Counted from the first letter of the stretch, positions 1,559 to 16,945 are shown. The stretch is 64,000 nucleotides of DNA from Vicinamibacteria bacterium (GCA_036556965.1 DATBIO010000289.1:964-64963); one strand, 5' to 3'. Numbers and translations: made by a program. The notes: a model not told the origin generated them from the sequence alone.

Positions 1559-3040
1559 CTAGAACGCGTAGTCGATGCCGATCACCGGCGCCACCTTGAA
1601 GCTCAGGCCGCTGTCGCTGAGGGGGAAGATCACGTGCGCGTTGATGAGCAGGGTCTTGGCCACGTTGAGCTTGAAGCCCGCCACCCCGATGAGCAGGTTG
1701 ACGTCCGAGTTGCGCTCCACGAGGTCCACCGTCTGGCGCGTGGCCACCAGGGAGGGGCCGCCGTTGACGGCGCGGTACGGGAAGTCCCGCGGGACCAGCT
1801 CGAAGCGGTCCACGTCCTGCAGCCAGCGGCCGACGAGGTCGAAGTCGAGGCTCAGCCGCGGGGAGACGCCGGCCACGAAGCCGACGACGTAGTTGAACTC
1901 GTCGGGGACCTCGAGGTTGGGCACGACCACGCCGGGGTCCTGGCCGCGGAACACCGTGTCGTAGGCGTCGGTCGCCCCCGTGGTGGGGGTGGGCACGTCG
2001 TCGCCGAGGGCGAAGGTCCCGAGCGACTCGCTCAGGCCGCCGCTCGAGAACGTGTAACCGAGGTTCACGTGGGGCGAGAACTTCCCGTAGTCCCCGGAAT
2101 AGTAGACGGAGGCCTTGAACTGCGTGGCCCCCGTGCCCAGGAGGTCGTCCTCGTCGCCGGTGGGCAGGCGGAGGTCGAGGCCCAGGGCGAGGCCGCCGCC
2201 GGGCTGGGGCCAGAAGTTGTACTTGGCCCGGAACAGGATGTCGCCGATACCGCTGGCCGACCCGGACTCCGTGGAGATCCGGTGGTCGGGGTCGCCCCCC
2301 ACGCCCGCGAAGGTGTGGATGCTGGTGTTGGCGCCGCTGCCCAGGCGGTCCAGCGTCGACTCCATGGTGGCGTCGAGCTCCACGCTCACGATGGGGATGG
2401 CCACCGAGACGTCGAGCTGGTTGGTGAGCCCGTAGTTGGCGAAGAAGGACACCGTCTGCGTGCGCGCCTCCAGGAAGAGCGTGGTCGCCACGAGGTCGCT
2501 CTCGAAGGACGGGTTGGCGTCCACCGTCGGCACGGGGGCGGTGGGCGGGGTCCCGTCCGGCGTCTGCCCCGGGCAGCACTCGTTGTGCCGCAGCTGGAAC
2601 AGGATGTCGCCGTCGTCGAGGTCCAGCCCCTGGAAGCTGTCGAACTCCACGCGCTGGTAGTTCACTCCCGCGCTGAAGCGGTTCTTGCCGATGGTCAACG
2701 CGCGCTCCGCGAACGCGGGCCCGAAGTTGCCCGAGCTGCGCCGGGGGAAGAACCCGGGAGGCTCCAGGGTGTAGGTGAAGCCGCCCGAGGAGGAGCCGGT
2801 GGGGAAGGTCGAGAGCTCCGACACGATGGCGCCGTTGAGGGCGTAGGGCGCCACGAGCTGGGCCGCGGACGGGAGGAAGTGGGCCTCGTGCGGGTTCCCC
2901 GCCACGTTGCCCACCGTGGAGGGCATGGTCACCGCCTCCGAGAGGAGGCGTGGCAGCAGCTCGGCCAGCGTTTGCGCCCCGCTCTCCGCGGCGAGCCCGG
3001 AGAGGACGACCCCGAGGACGAGGCTGTATCGAAGCGACAT
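1559..3040 (-). CDS. Outer-membrane beta-barrel protein, MetA-pathway/phenol-degradation-like OMP, with a signal peptide.
   Basis: 493 aa. N-terminal signal peptide MSLRYSLVLGVVLSGLAAESGAQT. Alternating amphipathic beta-strand pattern, Gly/Tyr/Phe-rich, C-terminal ...GIDYAF ending in Phe, which is typical for OMP targeting. Confidence 0.65.
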   Translation of the reverse strand: MSLRYSLVLGVVLSGLAAESGAQTLAELLPRLLSEAVTMPSTVGNVAGNPHEAHFLPSAAQLVAPYALNGAIVSELSTFPTGSSSGGFTYTLEPPGFFPRRSSGNFGPAFAERALTIGKNRFSAGVNYQRVEFDSFQGLDLDDGDILFQLRHNECCPGQTPDGTPPTAPVPTVDANPSFESDLVATTLFLEARTQTVSFFANYGLTNQLDVSVAIPIVSVELDATMESTLDRLGSGANTSIHTFAGVGGDPDHRISTESGSASGIGDILFRAKYNFWPQPGGGLALGLDLRLPTGDEDDLLGTGATQFKASVYYSGDYGKFSPHVNLGYTFSSGGLSESLGTFALGDDVPTPTTGATDAYDTVFRGQDPGVVVPNLEVPDEFNYVVGFVAGVSPRLSLDFDLVGRWLQDVDRFELVPRDFPYRAVNGGPSLVATRQTVDLVERNSDVNLLIGVAGFKLNVAKTLLINAHVIFPLSDSGLSFKVAPVIGIDYAF

Positions 3041-3116
3041 GCGCGTGCCTCCGGTCGGTTGATGCGGTGGCCCGACGGCCGTTGCGTGGCACTCTAACAG
3101 AGGCCCCGCCGTGCTG

Positions 3117-5828
3117 TCATGGCACGGGCGGCGCCGCGGCCGACGTGTAGAGGGCGTTGAGGAAGGGAATGTAGGTCGACCAGCTCTGGCCGCGGTACTG
3201 CGGACGGAACCCGAACAGCACCACGCGGCCCTTGCCCAGCGGCACCTCGGCCAGGGCCGTCTTCCCGTGCAGGGCGGCCCCCCCGGACAGCCACCCGGAG
3301 AGGAGCAGGTCGGCCTCCGGGTACCAGGCCACCGACCGGCCTCCGCGCAGCGAGAAGGCGGGCGAGGCCTCGAACCACACGGGGACGCTCTCGGGCAGAC
3401 CGTGGCTCAGCGGGCTCTCCGGGTCGAAGCGTGCCTGCAGCAGCGATCCCGGGCAGTCCACCTCGTCCGTTCCGTCCGCGCGGCCCTCTCCCTGGGCGAG
3501 CACGTTGCTCACGGGCAGGGCCAGCTCCTCGATGGCGAAGTCGGAGGCGGAGTCCAGGGCCACCAGCGTGCCTCCCTCCTCCACGAAGGCCTTGAGCGCG
3601 CGCGCCCCCTCCCGCCCCAGGCCGCCCGTGTACTCCGGAGGCAGCGAGCCCGCGGGGTGGCCGGTCAGGATCTGCTCCGCGCGCTGGTCGGGGAGCACGA
3701 TGGCGTCGAAGCGGTCGCGCAGCCGGCCCGCCCGCACGTCGGCGTCGTGCAGGGTCGTGTAGGGGACCTCCATCTGCTTCTCGAAGAGGAAGCGCGTCCA
3801 GCCCTCGTCCATGGAGGCCAGCCAGGATTGATAAAGCCCCACGCGCGGGGGCTTCAGCAGGAGGGTGCGCGGCTCCCCGCGCAGGAGGCCCACCTGGAGG
3901 CCGAGGTCCCGGGCCAGGGGCTCCACCTGCCGGCGGGCGGAGAAAGGGGCCAGGAGCGTGCCCGCCGGGTACCGGCGCCGGCCCTCCACGTGCTCGGCCA
4001 GCAGCCAGCGCATGGGGACGCCCGCCCGCTGCAGGCGGCCCAGGGCGACGAGGTCGCCCGTCCGGTGTCCGAGGGCAAGGTAGCGGCCGCGTCCGCGCTC
4101 CACCGTGCCCGGGGGCACGCTCACCACGGCCACCGGCTCCAGCGCCGCCTCGAAGGGCGCGTCCACCGTCACCGTCTCCACCCCCATCAGGAGGGGCAGG
4201 GTGTGCGCGGTCACGTCGTAGGGACGCTGCACGGGTCCGCCCGCGAAGGGGCGGAGCGTGGGATAGCGCTGCCGCTCGAGCACCGTCTTGGCGAAGGAGC
4301 TGAAGGGCTGGGCCATGAGCACCACGTGGCTGCCCGCGGGGAACCGGCGCCCCGCGGCCTCGAACGGCTTGCGCGCGCGGTGCACCTCCACTCCTCCCGT
4401 GCGCAGCACGCGCAGGAGGCTCGCCGCGGCGTGGGGGTCGGCGGGAGCCGCGGGGAAGACGAAGGCGAAGGGCTGGGTCCGCTGCGCGGCGCGGCGGCTC
4501 ACGTCGTAGGCCGTGCGCAGCCAGTAGGCCCGGTTGCCGGCGGCGTGCTCGAGGAGGGCCCGCGTGGCGGAGCGCTGGTAGGCGATCACGTCGCGTAGCC
4601 GCCAGGTGCCCCCCGACCAGGGCAGGGGCAGGCGCGCGGAGCGCAGGCGGGGATCGAAGCCCTCCTCGCGCCGCAGGTCGCCGAAGGGCACCTCCAGGGG
4701 CGTGGCCATGCGCGCGGAGGCGGACTCGCTCAGCACGCGCACCCCGCCGTGCGTGTGCGGGTACGCGCGCGCGGGCGCCCAGGCGTCGAAGAGGGCGCCC
4801 GTCACCACGCCCCCCTTGCCCTCGCCGGTCAGGCGGGCGGCGATGTGCGCGCCCAGGCCGTTGACGGCGGCGATGAGGGCGGAGTCCACGTTGGGCTCCC
4901 ACGGGTCCAGGTAGGGCGGCACGAACAGGCGGGCCCCGCGCGCGCCCATCTGGTGGAGGTCGTGCACCACCTGCGGCCGCCAGCGGTCGTACACGTGCGC
5001 CACCGTGAGGCGGCTCTCCTCCTGCGAGAACATGTACCAGTCGCGGTTGTTGTCGTGGCCGACGTACTTCTGGTAGAGGAAGGGCAGCCGGCACCCCGCT
5101 TCGTCCCCGCAGCCGGATCCCTCGTAGGGCGTGCCCAGCACCCGGCGGTACCACTCCGTGACCTTCTGCGTCCCGTCCGGGTTGTGGGAGGGCAGGAGGA
5201 CGACCACCACCTCCTCCAGGAGGGAGCGCACCGCGGGATCGTCGCCAGCGGCCAGCTCGTAGGCGGTGAGCATCGCGGTGTGGGGCGCCCCCACTTCCGT
5301 GGAGTGGATGCCGTGGTGCAGGGCCACCACCACCTTTCCTCGGGCGATCACGCGCTCCGCCTCCTCGGGGGGAAGGGTGCGCGGATCGAACAGCCGCAGG
5401 TTGTCCTGGCGGATCGCCTCCAGGCGCGCCATGTTGGCCTCGGAGCTGATCACCGCGACCAGGAAGGGCAGGCCCTCCGTGGTCTTGCCCACCTCCTCCA
5501 CGCTCACTCGCGGCGAGGCGGCATCGAGCCGTCGGAAGTAGCCGGCGATCTGGTGCCAGTCGGCCAGGACGCGGTCCTCGCCCGGCTCGAAGCCGAGGAC
5601 GGAGGCGGGGCTGGGGACCTCGGCCGCGGCGGGCGCGCCGAGGGCGAGGAGCAGGAGCAGGAGGAGCGCGATCACGGGGCCAGCAGACCACACGCCGTCG
5701 CGGGGGCGCAAGGCCTCGCGCGCGAATGGAAACGCTCCGGCCCGGGCCCCACGCCCGCGCGCGCGACTAGAATCCGCCCATCCGTCTCCGACCCCGGTGG
5801 GGCCGCCCCGGCGGCCCGCACCGTGCAC
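3117..5828 (-). CDS. Large secreted M14-family zinc carboxypeptidase. Start uncertain; it is probably nearer 5700.
   Basis: HGIHSTE (HxxE zinc ligands) and a downstream His are typical of the M14 peptidase fold. A signal-like segment [21 protein letters not shown] is present. The product is about 880-900 aa. The ATG at 5828 would overlap the mscL promoter region, so the true start may be an internal GTG. Confidence 0.7.
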
Positions 5829-5862
5829 GGCGCCGTTTCACGGAAAGGAGCGTCCCGTGGGC

Positions 5863-7378: not shown

Positions 7379-7426
7379 GCTCCGCATTCTAGGCCGCGTC
7401 CGCGCTCCAGGGTATCCTCCACGCCC

Positions 7427-8125
7427 GTGCCCGCGTCCATCAGCGTGGTCGTCCCCATGTACAACGAGGAGGAGTACCTCCCGCTCACGGTGGCGGCGGT
7501 GCGCGGCGTGCTCGAGGACATGCGTGCGGACTGGGAGCTGGTCATCGTGGACGACGCCTCCACGGACGGGACGGGGGCGGCGGCCGACGAGGCCGCCCGC
7601 GCCGAGCCCCGCGTGCGCGTGCTGCACAACCCCCGGAACCTGACCCTGGGGGGCAGCCTGCGCGCGGCCTACGCCCTGGCCAGCAAGGACCTGGTCCTGT
7701 ACACCGACGCCGACCTGCCCTTCGACTTCCAGGAGGTGCCGCGGGCGGTGCGGCTCCTCGAGTACCAGCGCGCGGACGTGCTCTCCGCCTATCGCTTCCA
7801 CCGCACGGCGGAAGGCCCACGCCGGGCCCTCTACACCTTCGCCTACAACGAGCTCATCCGCGCCCTCTTCGACCTCGGGGTCAAGGACGTCAACTTCTCC
7901 TTCAAGCTCTTCCGGCGCGCGCTCCTGCAGCGCATCGAGCTCAAGAGCAACGGCAGCTTCATCGACGTGGAGTTCCTGGTGCGCGCCAAGAACGCGGGGG
8001 CCCACATCATCCAGATCGGGGTCGACTACTTCCCGCGCACGAGGGGCGTGTCCACCCTCTCCTCCTGGCGCGTGATCGGCAACATCCTCAGGGAGATGCG
8101 GCAGCTGCGGGCCGAGCTGAAGTAG
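7427..8125 (+). CDS. Family 2 glycosyltransferase (dolichol-P-mannose / polyprenol-P sugar synthase-like).
   Basis: ISVVVPMYNEEEYLPLTV...VIVDDASTDGT...YTDADL are GT2 DxD-type motifs. The GTG start at 7427 was chosen because the ATG at 7043 would completely overlap the divergent fabH-like gene. Confidence 0.75.
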   Translation: MPASISVVVPMYNEEEYLPLTVAAVRGVLEDMRADWELVIVDDASTDGTGAAADEAARAEPRVRVLHNPRNLTLGGSLRAAYALASKDLVLYTDADLPFDFQEVPRAVRLLEYQRADVLSAYRFHRTAEGPRRALYTFAYNELIRALFDLGVKDVNFSFKLFRRALLQRIELKSNGSFIDVEFLVRAKNAGAHIIQIGVDYFPRTRGVSTLSSWRVIGNILREMRQLRAELK

Positions 8126-9967: not shown

Positions 9968-10447
9968 TCAGCTGATCTCGAACGACTCCTCGCCCGCCTT
10001 GGCCCCTCCGAGCCAGATCTCGAGGCGGTGCGTGCCCGTGCTCCAGGCGCTCGTGTCCTTGGCCCGCAGGTTGACGGCGGTGGCGGCGGGCGGCACCACG
10101 AGCTTCTCTTCCCCCACCTGCTCCCCGCGCGGCCCGAAGAACACGAGGCGGACCTCGGTGCCCGGAGAGATGGGGGTGGTCTTGACCGACACGAACACGG
10201 GATCGCCCCTCTTGAAGGAGCTGGCGGCCTCGGCCACCGTCCCATCGGGGGCGAGGCTGCGTCCGAGGGCCACGGCCTCGATGGCCATCTCGCGCACGGC
10301 GGCGGGCGGGGTGGTGGCCCCCCCGGCATCCGCCACCGGGGCGGCCGCGGTCGAAGCGGGGGGGGCGGCGGTGTCCCGCGCCGAGCCGCTGCACGCCGCG
10401 GTCAGACCCGCGAGAACGGCCGGGCAGCACAGAAGGCGGATCTTCAT
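9968..10447 (-). CDS. Small lipoprotein, hypothetical.
   Basis: MKIRLLCCPAVLAGLTAAC has a lipobox (LTAAC), followed by an Ala/Pro-rich linker. Confidence 0.55.
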   Translation of the reverse strand: MKIRLLCCPAVLAGLTAACSGSARDTAAPPASTAAAPVADAGGATTPPAAVREMAIEAVALGRSLAPDGTVAEAASSFKRGDPVFVSVKTTPISPGTEVRLVFFGPRGEQVGEEKLVVPPAATAVNLRAKDTSAWSTGTHRLEIWLGGAKAGEESFEIS

Positions 10448-10490
10448 GGCGAGCCTCCTCTGCTTCCAGTCTAGGAGGGGCGGGAGGGGC

Positions 10491-11603
10491 CTACCACGGC
10501 CGGGTGAGGAATTCGTACACGAGCATGGTGCCCAGGAAGACGAGGACCAGGGTGGCCTCGTGGGGCGCCCGGGCCTTGAAGCGGTGCCACAGCCAGGCCG
10601 CCAGGTAGCAGGTGAGCACGATGCCCATCAGCACCATGGCGCCCTGGGCCAGGGTGAGGGTACCCGCCAGCCCGGCCAGGGGGGCCCCCGTGAGGACGCC
10701 TCCGTAGAGCAGGTACAGGTGGAGCACGTAGACCAGCAGCGTCTCGTGGCCGAGCAGGGCGAGCGCCCGCATCCCGCGCCAGTTGCGGTCGGCGGCCGCT
10801 TCCACGAGGCGGAGCAGGAGCAACAGGCCGCCCAGCCGGATGAGCGCGTATCCGGGGGACACGCCCCAGAAGTCCACCTGCCCGCGGAGGGCGAGGGCCA
10901 CCAGCACCCCGAGCCCGATCAGGAGCGAGCCGCCCACCACCGCGCGGCGCTTGCGCGTCGCCTCCTCCTGCCGGCCCAGGGCCGCGCCCGCCACCGTCCC
11001 CCCGAGCACGAAGGCGGCGAAGGGGAAGATGGGGAAGCGCGAGGGCGCCACGCGCTGGTCCAGGTAGGCGCCCAGGAAAAGGGGCACGCGGCTCGACAGC
11101 TCCGCCTCCCAGACCAGCGGTCCCAGCGCGAGCACGGCCACCGCGGAGGCGGCGGCGGCCAGGATCCAGCGGCGTCCGAAGACCCACTGCAGGAGCAGCA
11201 CGAAGAGCTGGCTCACCGCGATCACCTGGAGCGCGTTGCAGGCGAAGAACTCGGCGAGCTGGTGGTGGGTGGCTTCGTTGGCCGTCTTCCAGACGGAGAG
11301 GAACGGGAGGTGCAGCGCATAGCCCACGCCGAGCACGAAGAGCAGGCGGCGGGCGCGGCGGAAGCTGGCCTTGAGGGAGAGGGGGGCGCGCGGCAGGCCG
11401 GCCACGAAGCCCGAGGCGAAGAGGAAGCCCGGCGCCGTCGAGCCGTGGAAGATGAGCTGGAGCTGGTAGGGCCCGGAGGCCACGATGGCGGGCCGGAGCA
11501 GGGTGTCGAGGGTGTGGCCCTGCGTCATCACCAGGGCCATGAGCCCGCGGAAGGCGTCGATGTAGATCTCGCGGTTCTTGCGGGGATGACGCCGGCGCTC
11601 CAC
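10491..11603 (-). CDS. Integral membrane acyltransferase, family 3 / HGSNAT-like.
   Basis: IDAFRGLMALVMTQGH is the N-terminal motif of the acyltransferase_3/DUF1624 family, followed by about 10 TM segments. Confidence 0.6.
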   Translation of the reverse strand: MERRRHPRKNREIYIDAFRGLMALVMTQGHTLDTLLRPAIVASGPYQLQLIFHGSTAPGFLFASGFVAGLPRAPLSLKASFRRARRLLFVLGVGYALHLPFLSVWKTANEATHHQLAEFFACNALQVIAVSQLFVLLLQWVFGRRWILAAAASAVAVLALGPLVWEAELSSRVPLFLGAYLDQRVAPSRFPIFPFAAFVLGGTVAGAALGRQEEATRKRRAVVGGSLLIGLGVLVALALRGQVDFWGVSPGYALIRLGGLLLLLRLVEAAADRNWRGMRALALLGHETLLVYVLHLYLLYGGVLTGAPLAGLAGTLTLAQGAMVLMGIVLTCYLAAWLWHRFKARAPHEATLVLVFLGTMLVYEFLTRPW

Positions 11604-11669
11604 CCCGTCCCACGCGGGGGCCCTCTGTGCGGGCCCGGCCGTCTCCCGAGGCAGCGGGGAAGCCGTGGC

Positions 11670-12332
11670 TCAGACCGTGAGGGGACTCGACTCCGCCGCG
11701 CGGCGGACGTGCTCGAGCAGCATCGACTCGGGTCCCGCGCCCACGAACTCCACGGTCTCGCCCACCACCGTCTTGGGCACGGAGGACACCCGGTAGCGCT
11801 GCGCGAGTTCGGGGTACCCGGTCACCTCCACCCCGTCCGCGGTGACGAGGTCGCTCTCGATGGCGAACCGGTAGGCCAGGCGGACGGCCCGCGGGCAGTA
11901 GGGGCAGGTCGGCGTGGAGAAGACCTGGATGTGGACGGGGCGGGGGAGGTCCCGCAGGCCGGCCCGCGTGTCCTCCTCGAGGCCGCTGTCCCCCTGCGAG
12001 ACGTCCAGCACCGCGTCGAGCAGGGTGCCGAACTCGTAGCCCGACGGCATCCCGTAGAACCGCACGCCGTAGTCCTTCTCCTTGCCCAGGACGGCCACCG
12101 CGGGGATGCGCGCGATCTTCAGCTCCTCCACGCGCGCGGTGTCGAGCACGAAGTTGTACGGTTCCGCGGAGAGCCGCGCGTCGAGGAGGGCCAGCTCCTC
12201 GACCAGGCGCCGGACCTGCTCGGTCTCCGGGTCGGCCAGGGCCTGGCTGAACACGGCCAGCCGCACGTCCTGCTTCAGGCCTTCGAACCGCTTCTGGATC
12301 TCCGCCGTCAGCTCGTCCGTGAGCAGGGCCAT
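11670..12332 (-). CDS. Thioredoxin-fold protein-disulfide oxidoreductase-like protein.
   Basis: A CPYC active-site motif (FSTPTCPYCPRAV) sits in the second of two thioredoxin-like halves. Confidence 0.65.
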   Translation of the reverse strand: MALLTDELTAEIQKRFEGLKQDVRLAVFSQALADPETEQVRRLVEELALLDARLSAEPYNFVLDTARVEELKIARIPAVAVLGKEKDYGVRFYGMPSGYEFGTLLDAVLDVSQGDSGLEEDTRAGLRDLPRPVHIQVFSTPTCPYCPRAVRLAYRFAIESDLVTADGVEVTGYPELAQRYRVSSVPKTVVGETVEFVGAGPESMLLEHVRRAAESSPLTV

Positions 12333-12369
12333 GGCGTGGAACGGCAGTATAGCGCCCGGCGGCGGAGGG

Positions 12370-13700
12370 CTAGACCCAGGACGGGAACCACGTCCACGGG
12401 CGCACGCGGTCGAACACCGTGAAGTAGTACCAGGAAGCGGGCACGGGCAGCGCGGCCAGGAAGGGCAGGAAGAAGAAGAAGAGCAGGACCACGGCGCCCA
12501 CGTAGCCCTTGGCCAGGGGCGCCGCCCGGCCCTCCCAGCCGCGCTCCAGGATCAGGCCGAGGCTCAGGCAGGCGTAGGGGATGGCCTCGAAGAGGTAGTG
12601 GCTGTAGTTGAGCGTGCGCGGGGCGATGCCCCAGGGAAGGTAGAGGCAGAGGAAGCCCGCCCCGCAGAAGACCCGCCGCGGGTCGCGGTGGCGCAGCCCG
12701 GTGACGAGCGCCCACAGCGTCGCGGGCACGGAGGCCCACCACAGCGCGGGGTTCCCGATGGCGACCACGCCGCGGATGGTCTCCTCCACCTGGCGGAAGA
12801 AGTACCAGGTGGGCCGCGCCAGCAGGGGCCAGGTGTACCAGGCGCTGAAGTACGGGTGCTCGGCCCTCAGGTCGGCGTGGTAGCGCCAGATGGCCTTCGT
12901 GTAGGCGGGCAGGTTGCCGATGGCGTTGCCCTGCGCCATCCAGGGCACGTAGCTCAGCACGTAGACGGCCAGGGGCAGGGCGCCGAAGGCGAGGGCGGCG
13001 AGGGCCAGCTCCCGCGGGCGGGCCAGCCGCCGCCCGCGCACGACCAGGAGGACGAGGCCGAGGAAGCCCGCCGCCCACAGGCTGGTCCAGCGCGTGGAGA
13101 GGGCGAGGCCCAGGAAGAGGCCGGCCGCCGTCATGGCCCCCGGCGGCAGGCGCTCCTCGCGCACCGATCGCACCACGAAATAGGCGGCGGTGACCTGGAA
13201 GAGCACGGCGAAGATGTTGGTCATGGCGATGCGGCTCTGCACCAGGTAGACGCCGTCGCAGAGGAGCAGGAGCGCGGCCAGCAGCGCCGCGCGCCGGGTG
13301 GGGAGGACGCGGCGCGCGAGGAGGTAGAAGACGGGGGCCAGGGCCACCCCGGCCAGGGCCGGCATCAGGCGCCAGGCCCACGGCTCGTAGCCGAAGAGCC
13401 AGACGCCGACGGCGATCAGCAGCTTGGCGGTGGGCGGGTGGACCCACTCCGTGGGCGTGCGGCCCTCGAGGTACTCGAGCGCGGTCTTGGCGTGGTAGAC
13501 CTCGTCGAAGTACTCCTCGCCGGGGACCCCGAGTCCGGGCAGGCGGAAGAGCGCCGCCGCCAGGGCCAGCGCGAGCGCGACGACGGCGTCGCCGCGGGCG
13601 GCCGTGGGCGCGGGGGCCGGGGCGGGGGCCGGTCGCGCCCCGGCCGCCGGCTCGCGGGGCGAGCGTGCGCGCCGCCGCCGCTGCGCCGCCGCGCTCAGTC
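12370..13700 (-). CDS. PMT/GT39-family membrane glycosyltransferase. Start codon unresolved.
   Basis: EEYFDEVYHAKTALEYL (the DE motif of the dolichyl-phosphate-mannose protein mannosyltransferase family) follows a first TM segment VVALALALAAALF and many further TM helices. There is no ATG/GTG/TTG in frame between TM1 and the upstream gene stop. The only in-frame codon at the junction is a CTG overlapping the TGA at 13695-13697. Confidence 0.6.
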
Positions 13701-15275
13701 GCCGGTACCCGCGCCCTTCAGCAGGTCGAGGGCGTAAGCGATCGGGATGCCGAAGGAGTTGCCGCCGAAGCGGGAGAGGACCGCGTACTCCACGGCGATC
13801 ACCTGGCCGTGCTTGTTGAACACGGGGCCTCCGCTGCCGCCCTGGGTGGTGGCCGCGTCGAAGACGATGTCGGTGCTGGTCACGTCGCCGATGTGGCCCT
13901 GGGTGGTGGAGGGCCGGATCAGCCCCTGCACGCTGAGCGCCTCCGTCACGCGGCCGGTGTCGGGGCCGTGCGACTCCAGGATCTGCCGGACGAGCGAGGT
14001 CTCCGCCTTGGCCAGCAGGGCCTCGAGGCCGGCGGGGTAGCCCACCACGACCACGGGCTGGCCGGGCACGGCGCCGGCGAGGGCCTTGGCCAGCGGCAGC
14101 ACCGGGATGCGCCGGCCCCCGAGGTCTTCCCCCTGCAGCAGGGCGAGGTCCACCTTGTCCGCCCGGCGCACCATCGTGAGCGCGAAGGGCTGCCGCTGCC
14201 CGGGGAAGAAGGCGCGCAGCGCCAGGCGGTGCGGCGTGAACCCGGCGTGCTCGAGCGCCTCCGCCGCCTGGTCGTTCCACCACGGCTCGGCCACGTGCCG
14301 GTTGGTCAGGATCAGCCCGCGGCCGTCCACCAGGAACCCCGTGCCGTAGTAGTCCACCGAGTGCACGGGCCCGTTGCCCTCGGTGCCCAGGGCCGCCCCG
14401 CCGTCACCCTGGCGGGCAGGCGCGCCCGACTCCGTCAGCCGGACGCGCAGCGGCCGCCCTTCGGCGTCGCGGAAGCCGTAGGAGCCCTGGATGAGACAGA
14501 CGCCGGCCCCGTATTGCCGGATGATGTTCTCTCCCGCCGCCCGCTCCGTCTCGAGCTGGTGGATGCGCGTGCGCGTGGTCTCCAGGGCCTCGCGCAGGAT
14601 CTGTGCCTCGCCCGTGGCCGCCTCCGCGATGCGGCCTTCGAGCTCCTCCTCGCGGGCGTGGAAGGCCTGCAGGGTGTCCTCGACCTCGCGGCGCGCCACG
14701 TGGGCCTTCTGCCGCTCCGCCTCCACCCGCGCCTCCAGGAGCCGCCGCTCGACCTCTCCCGCCTTCATGTCGCGCTGCAGGCTGCCGATCTGCTCGCGCA
14801 TGCGCGCGTTCTCGCGCCAGGCCCACAAGGCCACCGCCGCCAGCAGGACGGCGAGCACGGTCAGCGTGCGCTGGAAGGTGCGGCTGGTGCGGGTGACCGC
14901 GCGGAACACGGCGGTGTCGGACAGGCGGCGGAACTGGCTGGTCACGCCGGTGAACTCCGCGCGCCGGCGGTCCTCGCGCAGGACGCGCAGGCGGGGACCG
15001 CCCGCGCCCAACTCGAGCACGTCGCCCTCGTGCAGCACCACCTCGTGCACCGACTGGCCGTCCACGAAGGTCCCGCGGCCGGAGCCGCTGTCCAGCGCCA
15101 CCACCTGGTGGCCGCGGTGGTAGAGCAGGCAATGGCGGGGCGCCGTGCCGGGCAGGACCACGTCGGCGTCCGCATCGGAGCCGAGGGTGGCGGGCAGGCG
15201 CGACAGGGTGGAGCGGGCGACGGGCACGTCGCCGCTCAGGTGCACGAGGACGACGCCCGGCGGCTCGTGGATCAT
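13695..15275 (-). CDS. FHA-domain, transmembrane, coiled-coil, trypsin-like (S1) serine protease fusion protein.
   Basis: N-terminal FHA domain (SDADADVVLPGTAPRHCLLYHRGHQVVALDSGSGRGTFVDGQSV). A TM segment LTVLAVLLAAVALWAW. A long coiled coil. A C-terminal S1 protease with TNRHV (His), D and GGSGGPV (Ser). The ATG overlaps the stop of the upstream lipoprotein (ATGA). Confidence 0.8.
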   Translation of the reverse strand: MIHEPPGVVLVHLSGDVPVARSTLSRLPATLGSDADADVVLPGTAPRHCLLYHRGHQVVALDSGSGRGTFVDGQSVHEVVLHEGDVLELGAGGPRLRVLREDRRRAEFTGVTSQFRRLSDTAVFRAVTRTSRTFQRTLTVLAVLLAAVALWAWRENARMREQIGSLQRDMKAGEVERRLLEARVEAERQKAHVARREVEDTLQAFHAREEELEGRIAEAATGEAQILREALETTRTRIHQLETERAAGENIIRQYGAGVCLIQGSYGFRDAEGRPLRVRLTESGAPARQGDGGAALGTEGNGPVHSVDYYGTGFLVDGRGLILTNRHVAEPWWNDQAAEALEHAGFTPHRLALRAFFPGQRQPFALTMVRRADKVDLALLQGEDLGGRRIPVLPLAKALAGAVPGQPVVVVGYPAGLEALLAKAETSLVRQILESHGPDTGRVTEALSVQGLIRPSTTQGHIGDVTSTDIVFDAATTQGGSGGPVFNKHGQVIAVEYAVLSRFGGNSFGIPIAYALDLLKGAGTGD

Positions 15276-15814
15276 GGCCGCGCCACGCCCGCGCCGGGCG
15301 CCACCACCGTGGCCCCGCCCTGCTCCTCCTGCACGCCGCGCGCGCCCAGGCGCCGCTCGATGCCCGTGGAGACGAACTTGCTCCAGGAGGACGGCCCGAT
15401 GCGCAGGAAGACCTCGACGTTGGCGTCCTTCCACTGGGGGTGGGCGAACATGCCTTCCACGGCCCCGCCGGAGTAGTAGCGCGCGTCCGACTTCAGCACC
15501 ACCAGGACCTCGGGACCGGGTCCCAGGGGACGGTCGGAGGCGGTGAGCGGCTTCCAGTCCGAGCCCCAGGTGGCGGTCTCGCCCTGGCGGCGGAAGGTCG
15601 CGGTGGCCTGCACCGAGCGGAGCACGTGCGGCCCCTTGTTGCGCACGTGGAGCCGCACCACGGGGGCCAGGTACTGGGTGGTCCCGGAAGGCCGGTCCAG
15701 GGCCCAGTAGGTCTCCACGCCGCTCACCTCCAGCTCCTGCTGCGGGTCGTAGGAGCGGCAGCCCGGGAGGAGGGCGGCGCACAGGGTCACCAGGAGGCGC
15801 GCGGGGGCGGTCAC
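15272..15814 (-). CDS. Lipoprotein, hypothetical.
   Basis: MTAPARLLVTLCAALLPGC has a lipobox. GTG start. Stop overlaps the next gene start. Confidence 0.55.
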   Translation of the reverse strand: MTAPARLLVTLCAALLPGCRSYDPQQELEVSGVETYWALDRPSGTTQYLAPVVRLHVRNKGPHVLRSVQATATFRRQGETATWGSDWKPLTASDRPLGPGPEVLVVLKSDARYYSGGAVEGMFAHPQWKDANVEVFLRIGPSSWSKFVSTGIERRLGARGVQEEQGGATVVAPGAGVARP

Positions 15815-15961
15815 GTGTCGATGCCTTCATCCTGATTGTACGGAAGGCGGGCCGCCACGTTGACATCTCGAAAACGGCGTCGCTATGATGGCCTCCCCGG
15901 GCCGGCCGCCTTGCGTATCCGCTGCGGCCGCGAGCCGCACAAACCAACGGAGTCCATCCGA

Positions 15962-16945
15962 ATGATCGAGGTCACCAGCCTCACCAAGCGTTACGGCCGC
16001 CACACCGCCGTGGACGGGGTCTCCTTCACCGTGAACAAGGGCGAGATCCTGGGCTTCCTCGGGCCGAACGGCGCGGGCAAGACCACCACCATGCGCATCC
16101 TGACCTGCTACCTCCCCCCCACCGAGGGCACGGCGCGGGTGGCCGGCTACGACGTGTTCGCACAACCCCTGGAGGTGAAGCGCCGCGTGGGCTACATCCC
16201 CGAGACGCCGCCCCTCTACCCCGACATGGACGTGGTGGGCTTCCTCGACTTCTGCGCGCGCATCAAGGGCGTGGCCGCGGGCGCGCGCAAGGCGCGCATC
16301 GAGGAGGCCATGGAGAAGACGCGCACGTCGGACGTGCGTGCCAAGCTCATCGGCCGGCTCTCCAAGGGCTACCGGCAGCGGGTGGGCCTGGCCCAGGCCA
16401 TCCTGGCCAACCCCGAGGTGCTCATCCTCGACGAGCCCACGGCCGGCCTGGACCCCAAGCAGATCATCGAGACGCGCGAGCTCATCCGGGGCCTGGGCGG
16501 CGAGCACACCATCGTCCTCTCCACGCACATCCTGCCCGAGGTCTCCATGACCTGCTCCCGCGTGGTGATCATCAACAAGGGCAAGGTGGTGGCGGAAGAC
16601 ACCACCGACGCCCTGGCCCGCCGGCTGCACGGCGCGGCGTCGCTGCGCGTGGAGGCGCGCGGGGAGGAAGCGGCCCTGGTGGCGCGCGTGCGCGGCGTCC
16701 CCGGGGTGGCCGCGGTGCGGTCGCGGCCGGCGCCCGCGGCGGGGGTGGCCGCCCTGGAGGTGGACCCCGTGGCCGGGGAGGACGTCCGCGCGCCGCTGGC
16801 GCGGGCGGTGGTCGAGGGGGGGTTCGACCTGCTCGCCCTGGCCCAGAGCACGGTGAGCCTGGAAGAGGTCTTCCTCTCCCTCACCACCACGGAGGCGGCG
16901 GAGGCGCCGGCGGCGCCCGGGCCCACGGCGGAGGTGACGGCATGA
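15962..16945 (+). CDS. ABC transporter ATP-binding protein (GldA-like).
   Basis: MIEVTSLTKRYGRHTAVDGVSFTVNKGEILGFLGPNGAGKTTT (Walker A) ...LSKGYRQRVGLAQA (signature) ...LILDEPTAGLD (Walker B). Confidence 0.85.
   Translation: MIEVTSLTKRYGRHTAVDGVSFTVNKGEILGFLGPNGAGKTTTMRILTCYLPPTEGTARVAGYDVFAQPLEVKRRVGYIPETPPLYPDMDVVGFLDFCARIKGVAAGARKARIEEAMEKTRTSDVRAKLIGRLSKGYRQRVGLAQAILANPEVLILDEPTAGLDPKQIIETRELIRGLGGEHTIVLSTHILPEVSMTCSRVVIINKGKVVAEDTTDALARRLHGAASLRVEARGEEAALVARVRGVPGVAAVRSRPAPAAGVAALEVDPVAGEDVRAPLARAVVEGGFDLLALAQSTVSLEEVFLSLTTTEAAEAPAAPGPTAEVTA

Follow-up and report, generated by a model that had tools for sequence, protein, structure and literature searches.

How can a gene be translated when it carries no recognizable start codon? 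The question is raised by a 64,000-nucleotide stretch of DNA (GCA_036556965.1 DATBIO010000289.1:964-64963; hereafter the window) of a Vicinamibacteria bacterium, an uncultured soil acidobacterium, with a GC content of 73.7%. Three genes are chained on the minus strand, encoding a lipoprotein (15814-15272), a membrane-anchored serine protease (15275-13695) and a glycosyltransferase (GT), ending at 12370, that resembles the GT39 family of protein O-mannosyltransferases (PMTs). The lipoprotein stop codon (TGA, 15274-15272) overlaps the protease start codon (ATG, 15275-15273) in an ordinary ATGA, and the GT gene follows with no canonical start at all. A preliminary description, made from the sequence alone, had recognized the chain with its ATGA overlap, the layout of the protease (FHA, transmembrane (TM) helix, coiled coil and an S1 domain with an intact triad), the GT39-like identity of the third product with its DE motif, and the lack of any GT start other than a CTG that overlaps the protease stop as cTGA. 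All of these points are borne out, by the open reading frames (ORFs), Pfam matches (PF02366 and PF16192 for the GT), AlphaFold2 (AF2) models, alignment to solved fungal PMTs and a codon scan of the junction.

A glycosyltransferase gene lacking a canonical start codon

Not a single ATG, GTG or TTG occurs in the GT frame between 14280 and 13365, and from the protease stop to beyond the DE motif of the catalytic loop there is none in any frame. Ahead of the first TM helix (TM1), the only near-cognate codons in the GT frame are a CTG (13698-13696) that overlaps the protease TGA (13697-13695) and an ACG (13605-13603); further CTGs lie inside TM1. An open frame upstream of TM1 is uninformative on its own, as this stretch, at 92% GC, is free of stops in every frame. 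The junction RNA (201 nt) is predicted to be strongly structured (-127 kcal/mol, z -2.3), no -10 box is visible in the junction sequence as read, and there is no terminator-like site at the protease-GT junction. Within GT codons 39-111 none of the seven Val codons is GTG; selection against internal GTG starts was considered as a reason and rejected, since the orthologues also favor GTC (82 GTG versus 129 GTC) and 3 of 36 have no GTG, which leaves a p value of ~0.03 that is not meaningful.

Automated annotation has dealt with this region in two ways. JGI (Joint Genome Institute) gene calls start at the ATG at 13365 and give a product of 331 aa, without TM1 (approximately residues 39-55), the DE motif (D65-E66 at 13506-13501, within FDEVYHA) or loop 1 with its His and Lys (VHPPTAK), and because these are missing the product should be inactive. 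A record of the same 65,009-bp contig from an NCBI source has a 442-aa product that begins MSAAAQ at the CTG. Among peptides derived from the GT, EPAAGAR and PAPAPAPAPTAAR are encoded upstream of the ACG, and GDAVVALALALAAALFR is also compatible with an ACG start.

Sixteen contigs of the same population were recovered from separate JGI samples and one Logan run (3300036836, 3300036847, 3300036837, 3300060353 and SRR35940837 are among the source samples), and 13-15 of them span the junction; no indel or start-creating variant is present among these. Because contigs from separate samples and pipelines agree over the junction, the missing start is not a sequencing or assembly error. From the protease stop to TM1, a distance of 113 nt, the sole variant is an A/T polymorphism at position 13666 (minus strand; 8 of 15 contigs), a synonymous third-position change in codon 11 of the putative N-terminal extension. 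Over the GT gene there are five synonymous and two non-synonymous polymorphisms, one of the latter only 23 nt from a contig end, compared with ~10:10 in the neighboring genes; the binomial probability of at least five synonymous changes in seven is ~0.02 if ~28% of random changes are synonymous, both figures being our own estimates. Counting only columns with at least 97% conservation among 118 homologues, the GT of the window deviates eight times, and two sister lineages deviate nine and six times. Since the polymorphism is biased towards synonymous changes and the conserved sites are as intact as in the sisters, the gene looks constrained and is probably alive, and the same sequence data argue against an old pseudogene.

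Three assemblies (L054, L057 and L059) end 61-144 nt past the protease stop, in the 92% GC stretch (13619-13634 region), which suggests a drop of short-read coverage there. Two others have ends that are ~80-90% identical to the window with indels, inside the ABC transporter genes (L056, window 16274-16564; L060, 17678-17730); these look like chimeric joins with a related strain and were left out of the single-nucleotide polymorphism (SNP) counts.

Orthologous junctions and the case for reinitiation

The junction was compared across 40 related species-level genome loci (L009-L049), picked by GT similarity. Homologues of the GT are 399-440 aa long (one has 475 aa) and start 5-40 residues before TM1. 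Stop and start overlap at the protease-GT junction of six loci, as ATGA (L024, L038), GTGA (L023, L028, L031) or TTGA (L033), followed by AGC; at the same site the window reads CTGAGC. In other loci the GT begins at an ATG or GTG 8-60 nt downstream of the protease stop, and in L010, L011, L017 and L025 a TATACT or TATAAT box stands 9 nt before the GT start, which hints at a promoter and at an mRNA with little or no leader. In the closest relative, L009 (76% identity), a CTGA junction is followed 60 nt later by GGAG-N9-GTG; where that start would lie, the window shows nothing but G/C-rich repeats encoding APAPAPAP. Every short-read locus has a canonical start, with no startless orthologue among them, and the junction is, to judge from these sequences, evolutionarily labile.

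Four loci apparently without a GT start (L041, L043, L048 and L049) are metagenome-assembled genomes (MAGs) of the MFD series, which we take to be nanopore-derived and indel-prone, and were treated as indel artefacts: L041 has an ATG and then a 1-nt indel, and L043, L048 and L049 give fragmentary tblastn matches for the GT, two of them for neighboring genes too. An in-frame protease-GT fusion in another MFD MAG (L016:~3000-5853) was set aside as a likely 1-nt indel error, L024 having ATGA at this place. A degenerate-pattern metagenome scan for EEYFDEVYHAKTALEYLEG, seeking relatives of 77%-100% identity, returned three distant loci only, all with canonical starts. The P0003 locus (77% GT identity) has no protease gene.

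Taken together with the window's own junction, these comparisons point to termination-reinitiation coupling. Lipoprotein, protease and GT would form one transcription unit, for which a TACAAT box upstream of the lipoprotein gene is a candidate promoter, and translation would be handed on at 4-nt stop/start overlaps. The hand-over from lipoprotein to protease would use the ordinary ATGA; at the protease-GT junction the usual A, G or T before TGA would have turned into CTGA, and the separate downstream start of the closest relative would have gone. We infer that ribosomes terminating at the protease UGA reinitiate on the overlapping CUG, and that a full-length GT-C enzyme of 442 aa, with 38 Arg-rich residues as its cytoplasmic tail, would be made in small amounts. 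Reinitiation is the simplest explanation because the junction has no promoter-like box, its RNA is stable and its geometry equals that of the six overlapping orthologues; the lack of a start in any frame, the lack of a visible -10 box and the stable RNA together disfavor independent entry of a 30S subunit and favor a ribosome that is just terminating. A tail of this length appears tolerable, as N-terminal tails range from 5 to ~40 residues among the GT homologues. Overlaps of -4 nt are known to support termination-reinitiation coupling (PMC10666635), and the arrangement is that of the trpB-trpA ATGA, with stop and start sharing TGA in an NTGA whose N is A, G or T in the six orthologues. A strict -4 overlap it is not, however: the geometry is present, but N is C in the window, which makes the start near-cognate, and, unlike other examples of such coupling or of rare CUG and AUU starts, there is no canonical back-up start. 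No consistent Shine-Dalgarno sequence precedes the NTGA overlaps. For the claim that full-length GT is made, weakly, from the CUG through this coupling, belief and doubt are in our judgment evenly balanced.

Several facts weigh on the other side. CUG is a poor initiator, working at 1-2% of AUG in E. coli (10.1101/063800), and the polymorphism counts are small. An R-D pair at the cytoplasmic base of TM1 is nearly invariant, its Arg column being at least 97% conserved in the 118 homologues, but the window has Gly in place of this Arg (G36; RGD); the fungal PMT 9i5k also has R-D here, and the window keeps a neighboring Arg (R35). From its position, this Gly may be equivalent to R82 of S. coelicolor Pmt, an Arg at the start of TM1 that is essential in that enzyme (PMC8698208). 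Moreover, the CTGA shared by the window, L009 and L010 arises simply from a C at the end of the last protease codon, and L009 and L010 nonetheless start their GTs separately downstream, so the CTG could be incidental. A recent loss of function is accordingly the alternative to be taken most seriously, although we regard it as unlikely: the ancestral start, a GTG with a GGAG Shine-Dalgarno sequence in L009, would have been destroyed as the GC-rich 5′ region was remodeled, leaving a young pseudogene or a silenced gene. It would account for a canonical start in every short-read orthologue and none here, for APAPAPAP-encoding repeats where L009 has GGAG-N9-GTG, and for the disappearance of the conserved TM1-adjacent Arg; gene content at the locus is fluid (the protease, the FHA module of the protease and a disulfide oxidoreductase are variable), and at 74% GC an open frame of 442 codons can persist without selection, long spurious ORFs being common in the window. 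Yet the startless allele is fixed in the sampled contigs, and later GT polymorphism is mainly synonymous, changes at conserved sites are not in excess of those in sister lineages, and the DE and VHPPTAK motifs of the catalytic loop are intact. The GT is also present in 40 of 40 related loci, a weak point given how the loci were picked. The preliminary description had foreseen that orthologues might show a conserved start mutated here, through pseudogene formation or sequencing error; the orthologues do have the ATG, GTG or TTG that the window is missing, but the error is excluded by the population contigs and an old pseudogene is disfavored.

The remaining alternatives place the start elsewhere or deny that it is missing. 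A non-canonical start such as the ACG, seven codons before TM1, is improbable: it is the only other near-cognate before TM1, ACG gives measurable initiation in E. coli (10.1101/063800) and a 7-residue tail would match orthologues such as L046 and L023, but it has no Shine-Dalgarno-like sequence ahead and sits in very stable GC-rich structure, its distance of 90 nt from the stop is one over which reported reinitiation limits conflict (PMC10666635), and in E. coli initiation from codons that are not near-cognate reaches 0.1-1% of AUG (10.1101/063800). Even less probable is that the 331-aa protein is the true product. Its ATG is the first canonical in-frame start and is picked by at least nine automated annotations, but the protein loses TM1 as well as the DE motif and the His and Lys of loop 1, which characterized PMTs require (PMC8698208), the topology of its remaining helices would be inverted, the homologues have 399-440 aa (475 aa in one case), and both polymorphisms in the 110 upstream codons that are not near a contig end are synonymous. 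That an artefact in the 92% GC stretch hides a GTG or ATG is scarcely credible; the breaks in three assemblies do indicate poor coverage there, but the 13-15 JGI and Logan contigs and the NCBI MAG contig agree base for base, bar one synonymous SNP. Equally hard to credit is a GT that starts at the GTGs at 14283/14280, deep within the protease gene, or that is fused to the protease through a -1 frameshift. No stop interrupts the GT frame back to 14283 and L016 reads from protease into GT in frame, but an overlap of 195 codons with the highly conserved protease core is implausible, the protease frame contains no X XXY YYZ slippery site, a fusion would be expected from its topology to put the N-terminus of TM1 outside and the DE loop in the cytoplasm, and L016 is itself an MFD MAG, others of which (L041, L043, L048 and L049) give broken GT matches, with a 1-nt indel in L041. 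Of the three possibilities offered in the preliminary description, the CTG overlapping the stop is thus the one best supported by the orthologues, and the frameshift and the far-upstream start are disfavored. Reinitiation on the CUG may be put in a stronger form, in which full-length GT is under purifying selection, the CUG in CUGA is its sole usable start and its synthesis is wholly dependent on ribosomes finishing the protease, at a low fixed fraction of protease output; this form we propose tentatively, with doubt somewhat outweighing belief.

Table 1. Features of the locus, in coordinates of the window
Feature	Position	Strand	Basis or remark
CTGA junction: protease TGA 13697-13695 and GT-frame CTG 13698-13696	13695..13698	-	proposed reinitiation site
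Arg/Ala/Pro-rich stretch from CTG to TM1, 37 codons, 92% GC	13585..13695	-	N-terminal cytoplasmic tail or untranslated spacer
ATG, codon 112, first canonical in-frame start	13363..13365	-	used by JGI gene calls
GT39/PMT-like GT-C glycosyltransferase gene, 442 codons from CTG, TAG stop 12372-12370	12370..13698	-	Pfam, alignments
Membrane-anchored HtrA-like serine protease gene, 526 aa, ATG start	13695..15275	-	ORF, Pfam, AF2
Predicted cytoplasmic FHA-fold domain, aa 8-100	14976..15254	-	Pfam FHA and Yop-YscD_cpl matches; AF2 predicted local distance difference test (pLDDT) score >90
Single TM helix of the protease, aa 133-152	14820..14879	-	hydropathy scan; within continuous AF2 helix 132-218
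Predicted periplasmic helical/coiled-coil stalk, aa 153-258	14502..14819	-	AF2 helices 132-218 and 221-258; weak coiled-coil-type Pfam matches
Chymotrypsin-fold protease domain, aa 259-520	13716..14501	-	triad H327/D376/S481, GGSGGP motif
Lipoprotein gene, 180 aa, GTG start	15272..15814	-	ORF; signal peptide, Cys19 (LLPGC), then Ig-like beta-sandwich domain
TACAAT, -10-like box	15835..15840	-	20 nt 5′ of lipoprotein GTG; hexamer scan, consensus match only
Protein disulfide oxidoreductase (PDO-type) gene, CPYC motif	11670..12332	-	NCBIfam TIGR02187, 231 bits, above cutoff

Protease, FHA-fold module and glycosyltransferase

The AF2 model of the protease (mean pLDDT 85) comprises an FHA beta-sandwich (8-100), a disordered linker, a helix (132-258) and the protease domain (259-520), and Pfam places FHA at aa 30-90 (E 9.7e-10; PF00498, 39.2 bits) and Trypsin_2 at aa 311-495 (E 5e-20). 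H327, D376 and S481 are invariant in 41 homologues and form a His-Asp-Ser triad. The best Foldseek matches of the model are HtrA protease domains (HtrA1, DegP, Deg; TM-score ~0.75). Like HtrA, DegP and DegS (S1C), the protease has the chymotrypsin fold, the triad, a GxSGGP motif and an N-terminal membrane anchor; such an anchor is carried by DegS. It differs from them in its stalk of ~105 coiled-coil residues, its cytoplasmic FHA fold and its lack of a PDZ domain, for which Pfam gives no match; the polypeptide stops six residues past the protease domain. It also scores far under the NCBIfam HtrA cutoffs (42 bits versus 416). The combination of FHA and protease is not rare: among the best 120 of 1,632 protease matches, only two lack the pair of FHA and Trypsin_2, and the 120 are 479-545 aa long.

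The FHA part has the beta-sandwich fold and lacks the residues by which canonical FHA domains bind phosphothreonine. In those, the phosphate is contacted by GR, SxxH and NG motifs (PMC3162421); aligned to GarA and Rv1747, the window domain has GS, A-P-R-H and R-G-T in their place. The replacements run through the family, for among 118 members the Arg of GR is Ser in 115 and the Ser of SxxH is Ala in 105, and at the Asn position of NG the five commonest residues are L, R, Q, E and A, with Arg in the window. The region also just passes the Pfam Yop-YscD_cpl cutoff (33.3 bits versus 33.2). Because the phosphothreonine-contact residues are replaced across the family, the domain does not appear to be built as a phosphothreonine reader, and the phosphate-blind folds of MxiG and YscD offer a better parallel for it than a kinase read-out does. 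Like MxiG-N and YscD, it is an FHA fold at the cytoplasmic N-terminus of an inner-membrane protein with a single TM pass, and its GR/SxxH/NG set is incomplete (PMC3162421); in contrast to them it is joined to a protease, is not a ring component of a secretion system and has no type III secretion system (T3SS) context. The closest protease orthologue (L009:3703-4941, 412 aa) lacks an FHA module, its sequence starting with the TM/coiled-coil part. The preliminary description had called the window rich in Ser/Thr kinases and had suggested that the FHA domain couples their signaling inside the cell to proteolysis outside it. A six-frame motif scan of the window and a Pfam scan of its largest ORFs found one kinase only, a single Pkinase domain (Pfam 1.5e-50) at 1-1500 on the minus strand, ~12 kb from the protease gene; with the contact residues missing and L009 lacking the module altogether, the coupling is unsupported. 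The protease would rather be an inner-membrane-anchored, PDZ-less HtrA-like enzyme with a helical stalk, in which the FHA fold serves as a phosphate-blind interaction module.

The GT is placed among PMT relatives by matches to PF02366 PMT (6e-24, 85.4 bits; cutoff 22.7) and PF16192 PMT_4TMC (3e-11, 43.5 bits; cutoff 32.4). It aligns with solved fungal PMTs over TM1 and the FDEVYH loop (FDEVYHA versus FDEVHFGK of PMT 9i5k) and has both the DE motif and the His and Lys of loop 1 as defined in PMC8698208, loop-1 residues being essential in S. coelicolor Pmt (PMC8698208). NF058602, the Pmt equivalog of NCBIfam, has a cutoff of 800 bits, and the GT scores 112; from this it is a relative of Pmt, not an equivalog; homologues with organism names come from Vicinamibacteria or Acidobacteriota. 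The likeness to actinobacterial Pmts (Rv1002c, S. coelicolor Pmt) and fungal Pmt1/Pmt4 extends to the order of PMT and PMT_4TMC domains, with TM1 followed by a periplasmic FDEVYH/VHPPxxK loop; as in the bacterial enzymes there is no MIR domain, and a polyprenyl-phosphate glycosyltransferase-like GT2 and a lipoprotein gene lie nearby. The window GT differs in being acidobacterial, shorter (413-442 aa), devoid of a canonical start and changed from Arg to Gly at the base of TM1.

The GT2 gene, at ~7394-8125 (+) and thus ~4 kb from the GT, resembles ArnC (8.5e-15), DPMS (3e-11) and the GtrB-like sll0501, and a GT2 is also found near L009; from these similarities it could be the synthase of the lipid-linked sugar donor. 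By analogy, the GT may be a PMT-like transferase that uses a polyprenyl-phosphate sugar, supplied by this ArnC/DPMS-type candidate, on a periplasmic acceptor, possibly the co-conserved lipoprotein. Lipoproteins are reported to be Pmt substrates in mycobacteria (PMC5673659).

The lipoprotein and the wider locus

The signal peptide of the lipoprotein, MTAPARLLVTLCAALLPG-C19, ends in a lipobox whose Cys19 is invariant in 41 sequences, and these two features support its assignment as a lipoprotein. The Pro at position -2 is atypical of the lipobox consensus. Pfam and NCBIfam searches gave no match, and the family has at least 206 homologues in metagenomes and MAGs, of which the named ones are only "hypothetical protein", one of them from a Vicinamibacteria MAG. 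The AF2 model (pLDDT 87.5) is a generic Ig-like beta-sandwich; a fold search returned generic Ig-like sandwiches only, with TM-scores of at most 0.43, from which no function could be assigned. Many homologues have C-terminal tails rich in Pro, Ser and Ala, such as PSPSPSPS (family alignment A1, columns 215-259), segments of the kind that is O-glycosylated in actinobacteria. The C-terminal tail of the window lipoprotein itself has one Thr and no Ser.

Constant across the related genomes are a divergent ABC-2/GldG-like/DUF4340 transporter, the lipoprotein, the GT and an HGSNAT-like membrane acyltransferase. Seventeen of the 40 loci have the protease between lipoprotein and GT, and the contig of an eighteenth begins with a fragment of it. 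In ~19 loci the protease is absent and the lipoprotein gene directly precedes the GT; on this distribution the protease is an accessory gene of the locus. The idea that protease and GT process an envelope substrate in a coordinated fashion thus keeps their adjacency in 17 of 40 loci in its favor, but it is the lipoprotein and the acyltransferase that consistently accompany the GT. The PDO gene accompanies the protease, being present in 17 of 18 protease-containing loci versus 2 of 19 protease-free ones, and this joint gain and loss may reflect a functional linkage or simply clade structure.

A TATACT box (12351-12346, minus strand) stands 13 nt before the PDO ATG. Such TATACT/TATAAT boxes often occur in the context CGCTATACT, 9-13 nt before starts: that of PDO in the window and those of the GT in four orthologous loci. 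GCTATAMT occurs once in the window, with 0.04 expected. The placement of these boxes suggests that they are promoters giving leaderless or very short-leader mRNAs in Vicinamibacteria.

Long antisense ORFs of 551-807 aa, rich in Arg, Gly, Ala and Pro, lie on the plus strand opposite the real genes (9999-12422, 12082-13737 and 13665-15476); they are a by-product of 74% GC, not genes. A crude gene list of the whole window based on third-position GC content (GC3), drawn up to spot further startless genes, was insufficiently informative and was dropped.

No described function for this locus was found; it may reasonably be supposed to modify a protein of the envelope, perhaps the lipoprotein. The missing start is real and reproducible and has already been resolved one way by one public annotation, and it amounts to a modest curiosity of translation initiation rather than a new system. 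Automated callers disagree on the same DNA, with products of 331 and 442 aa, and the shorter call puts a catalytically dead protein into databases. An over-reading has also been corrected, in that the FHA module of a large protease family seems not to be built to read phosphothreonine. The comparative data define a conserved envelope locus of Vicinamibacteria, in which the lipoprotein, the PMT-like GT and the HGSNAT-like acyltransferase adjoin a GldG-type ABC system, and protease and PDO are optional. If the CUG is used, the junction provides a natural A/G/T/C series at one NTGA site that could test the relaxation of start-codon choice in termination-reinitiation outside E. coli; and if GT synthesis is obligately coupled to that of the protease, the window would hold a natural case of coupling through a near-cognate start beside orthologues that use AUGA, GUGA and UUGA.

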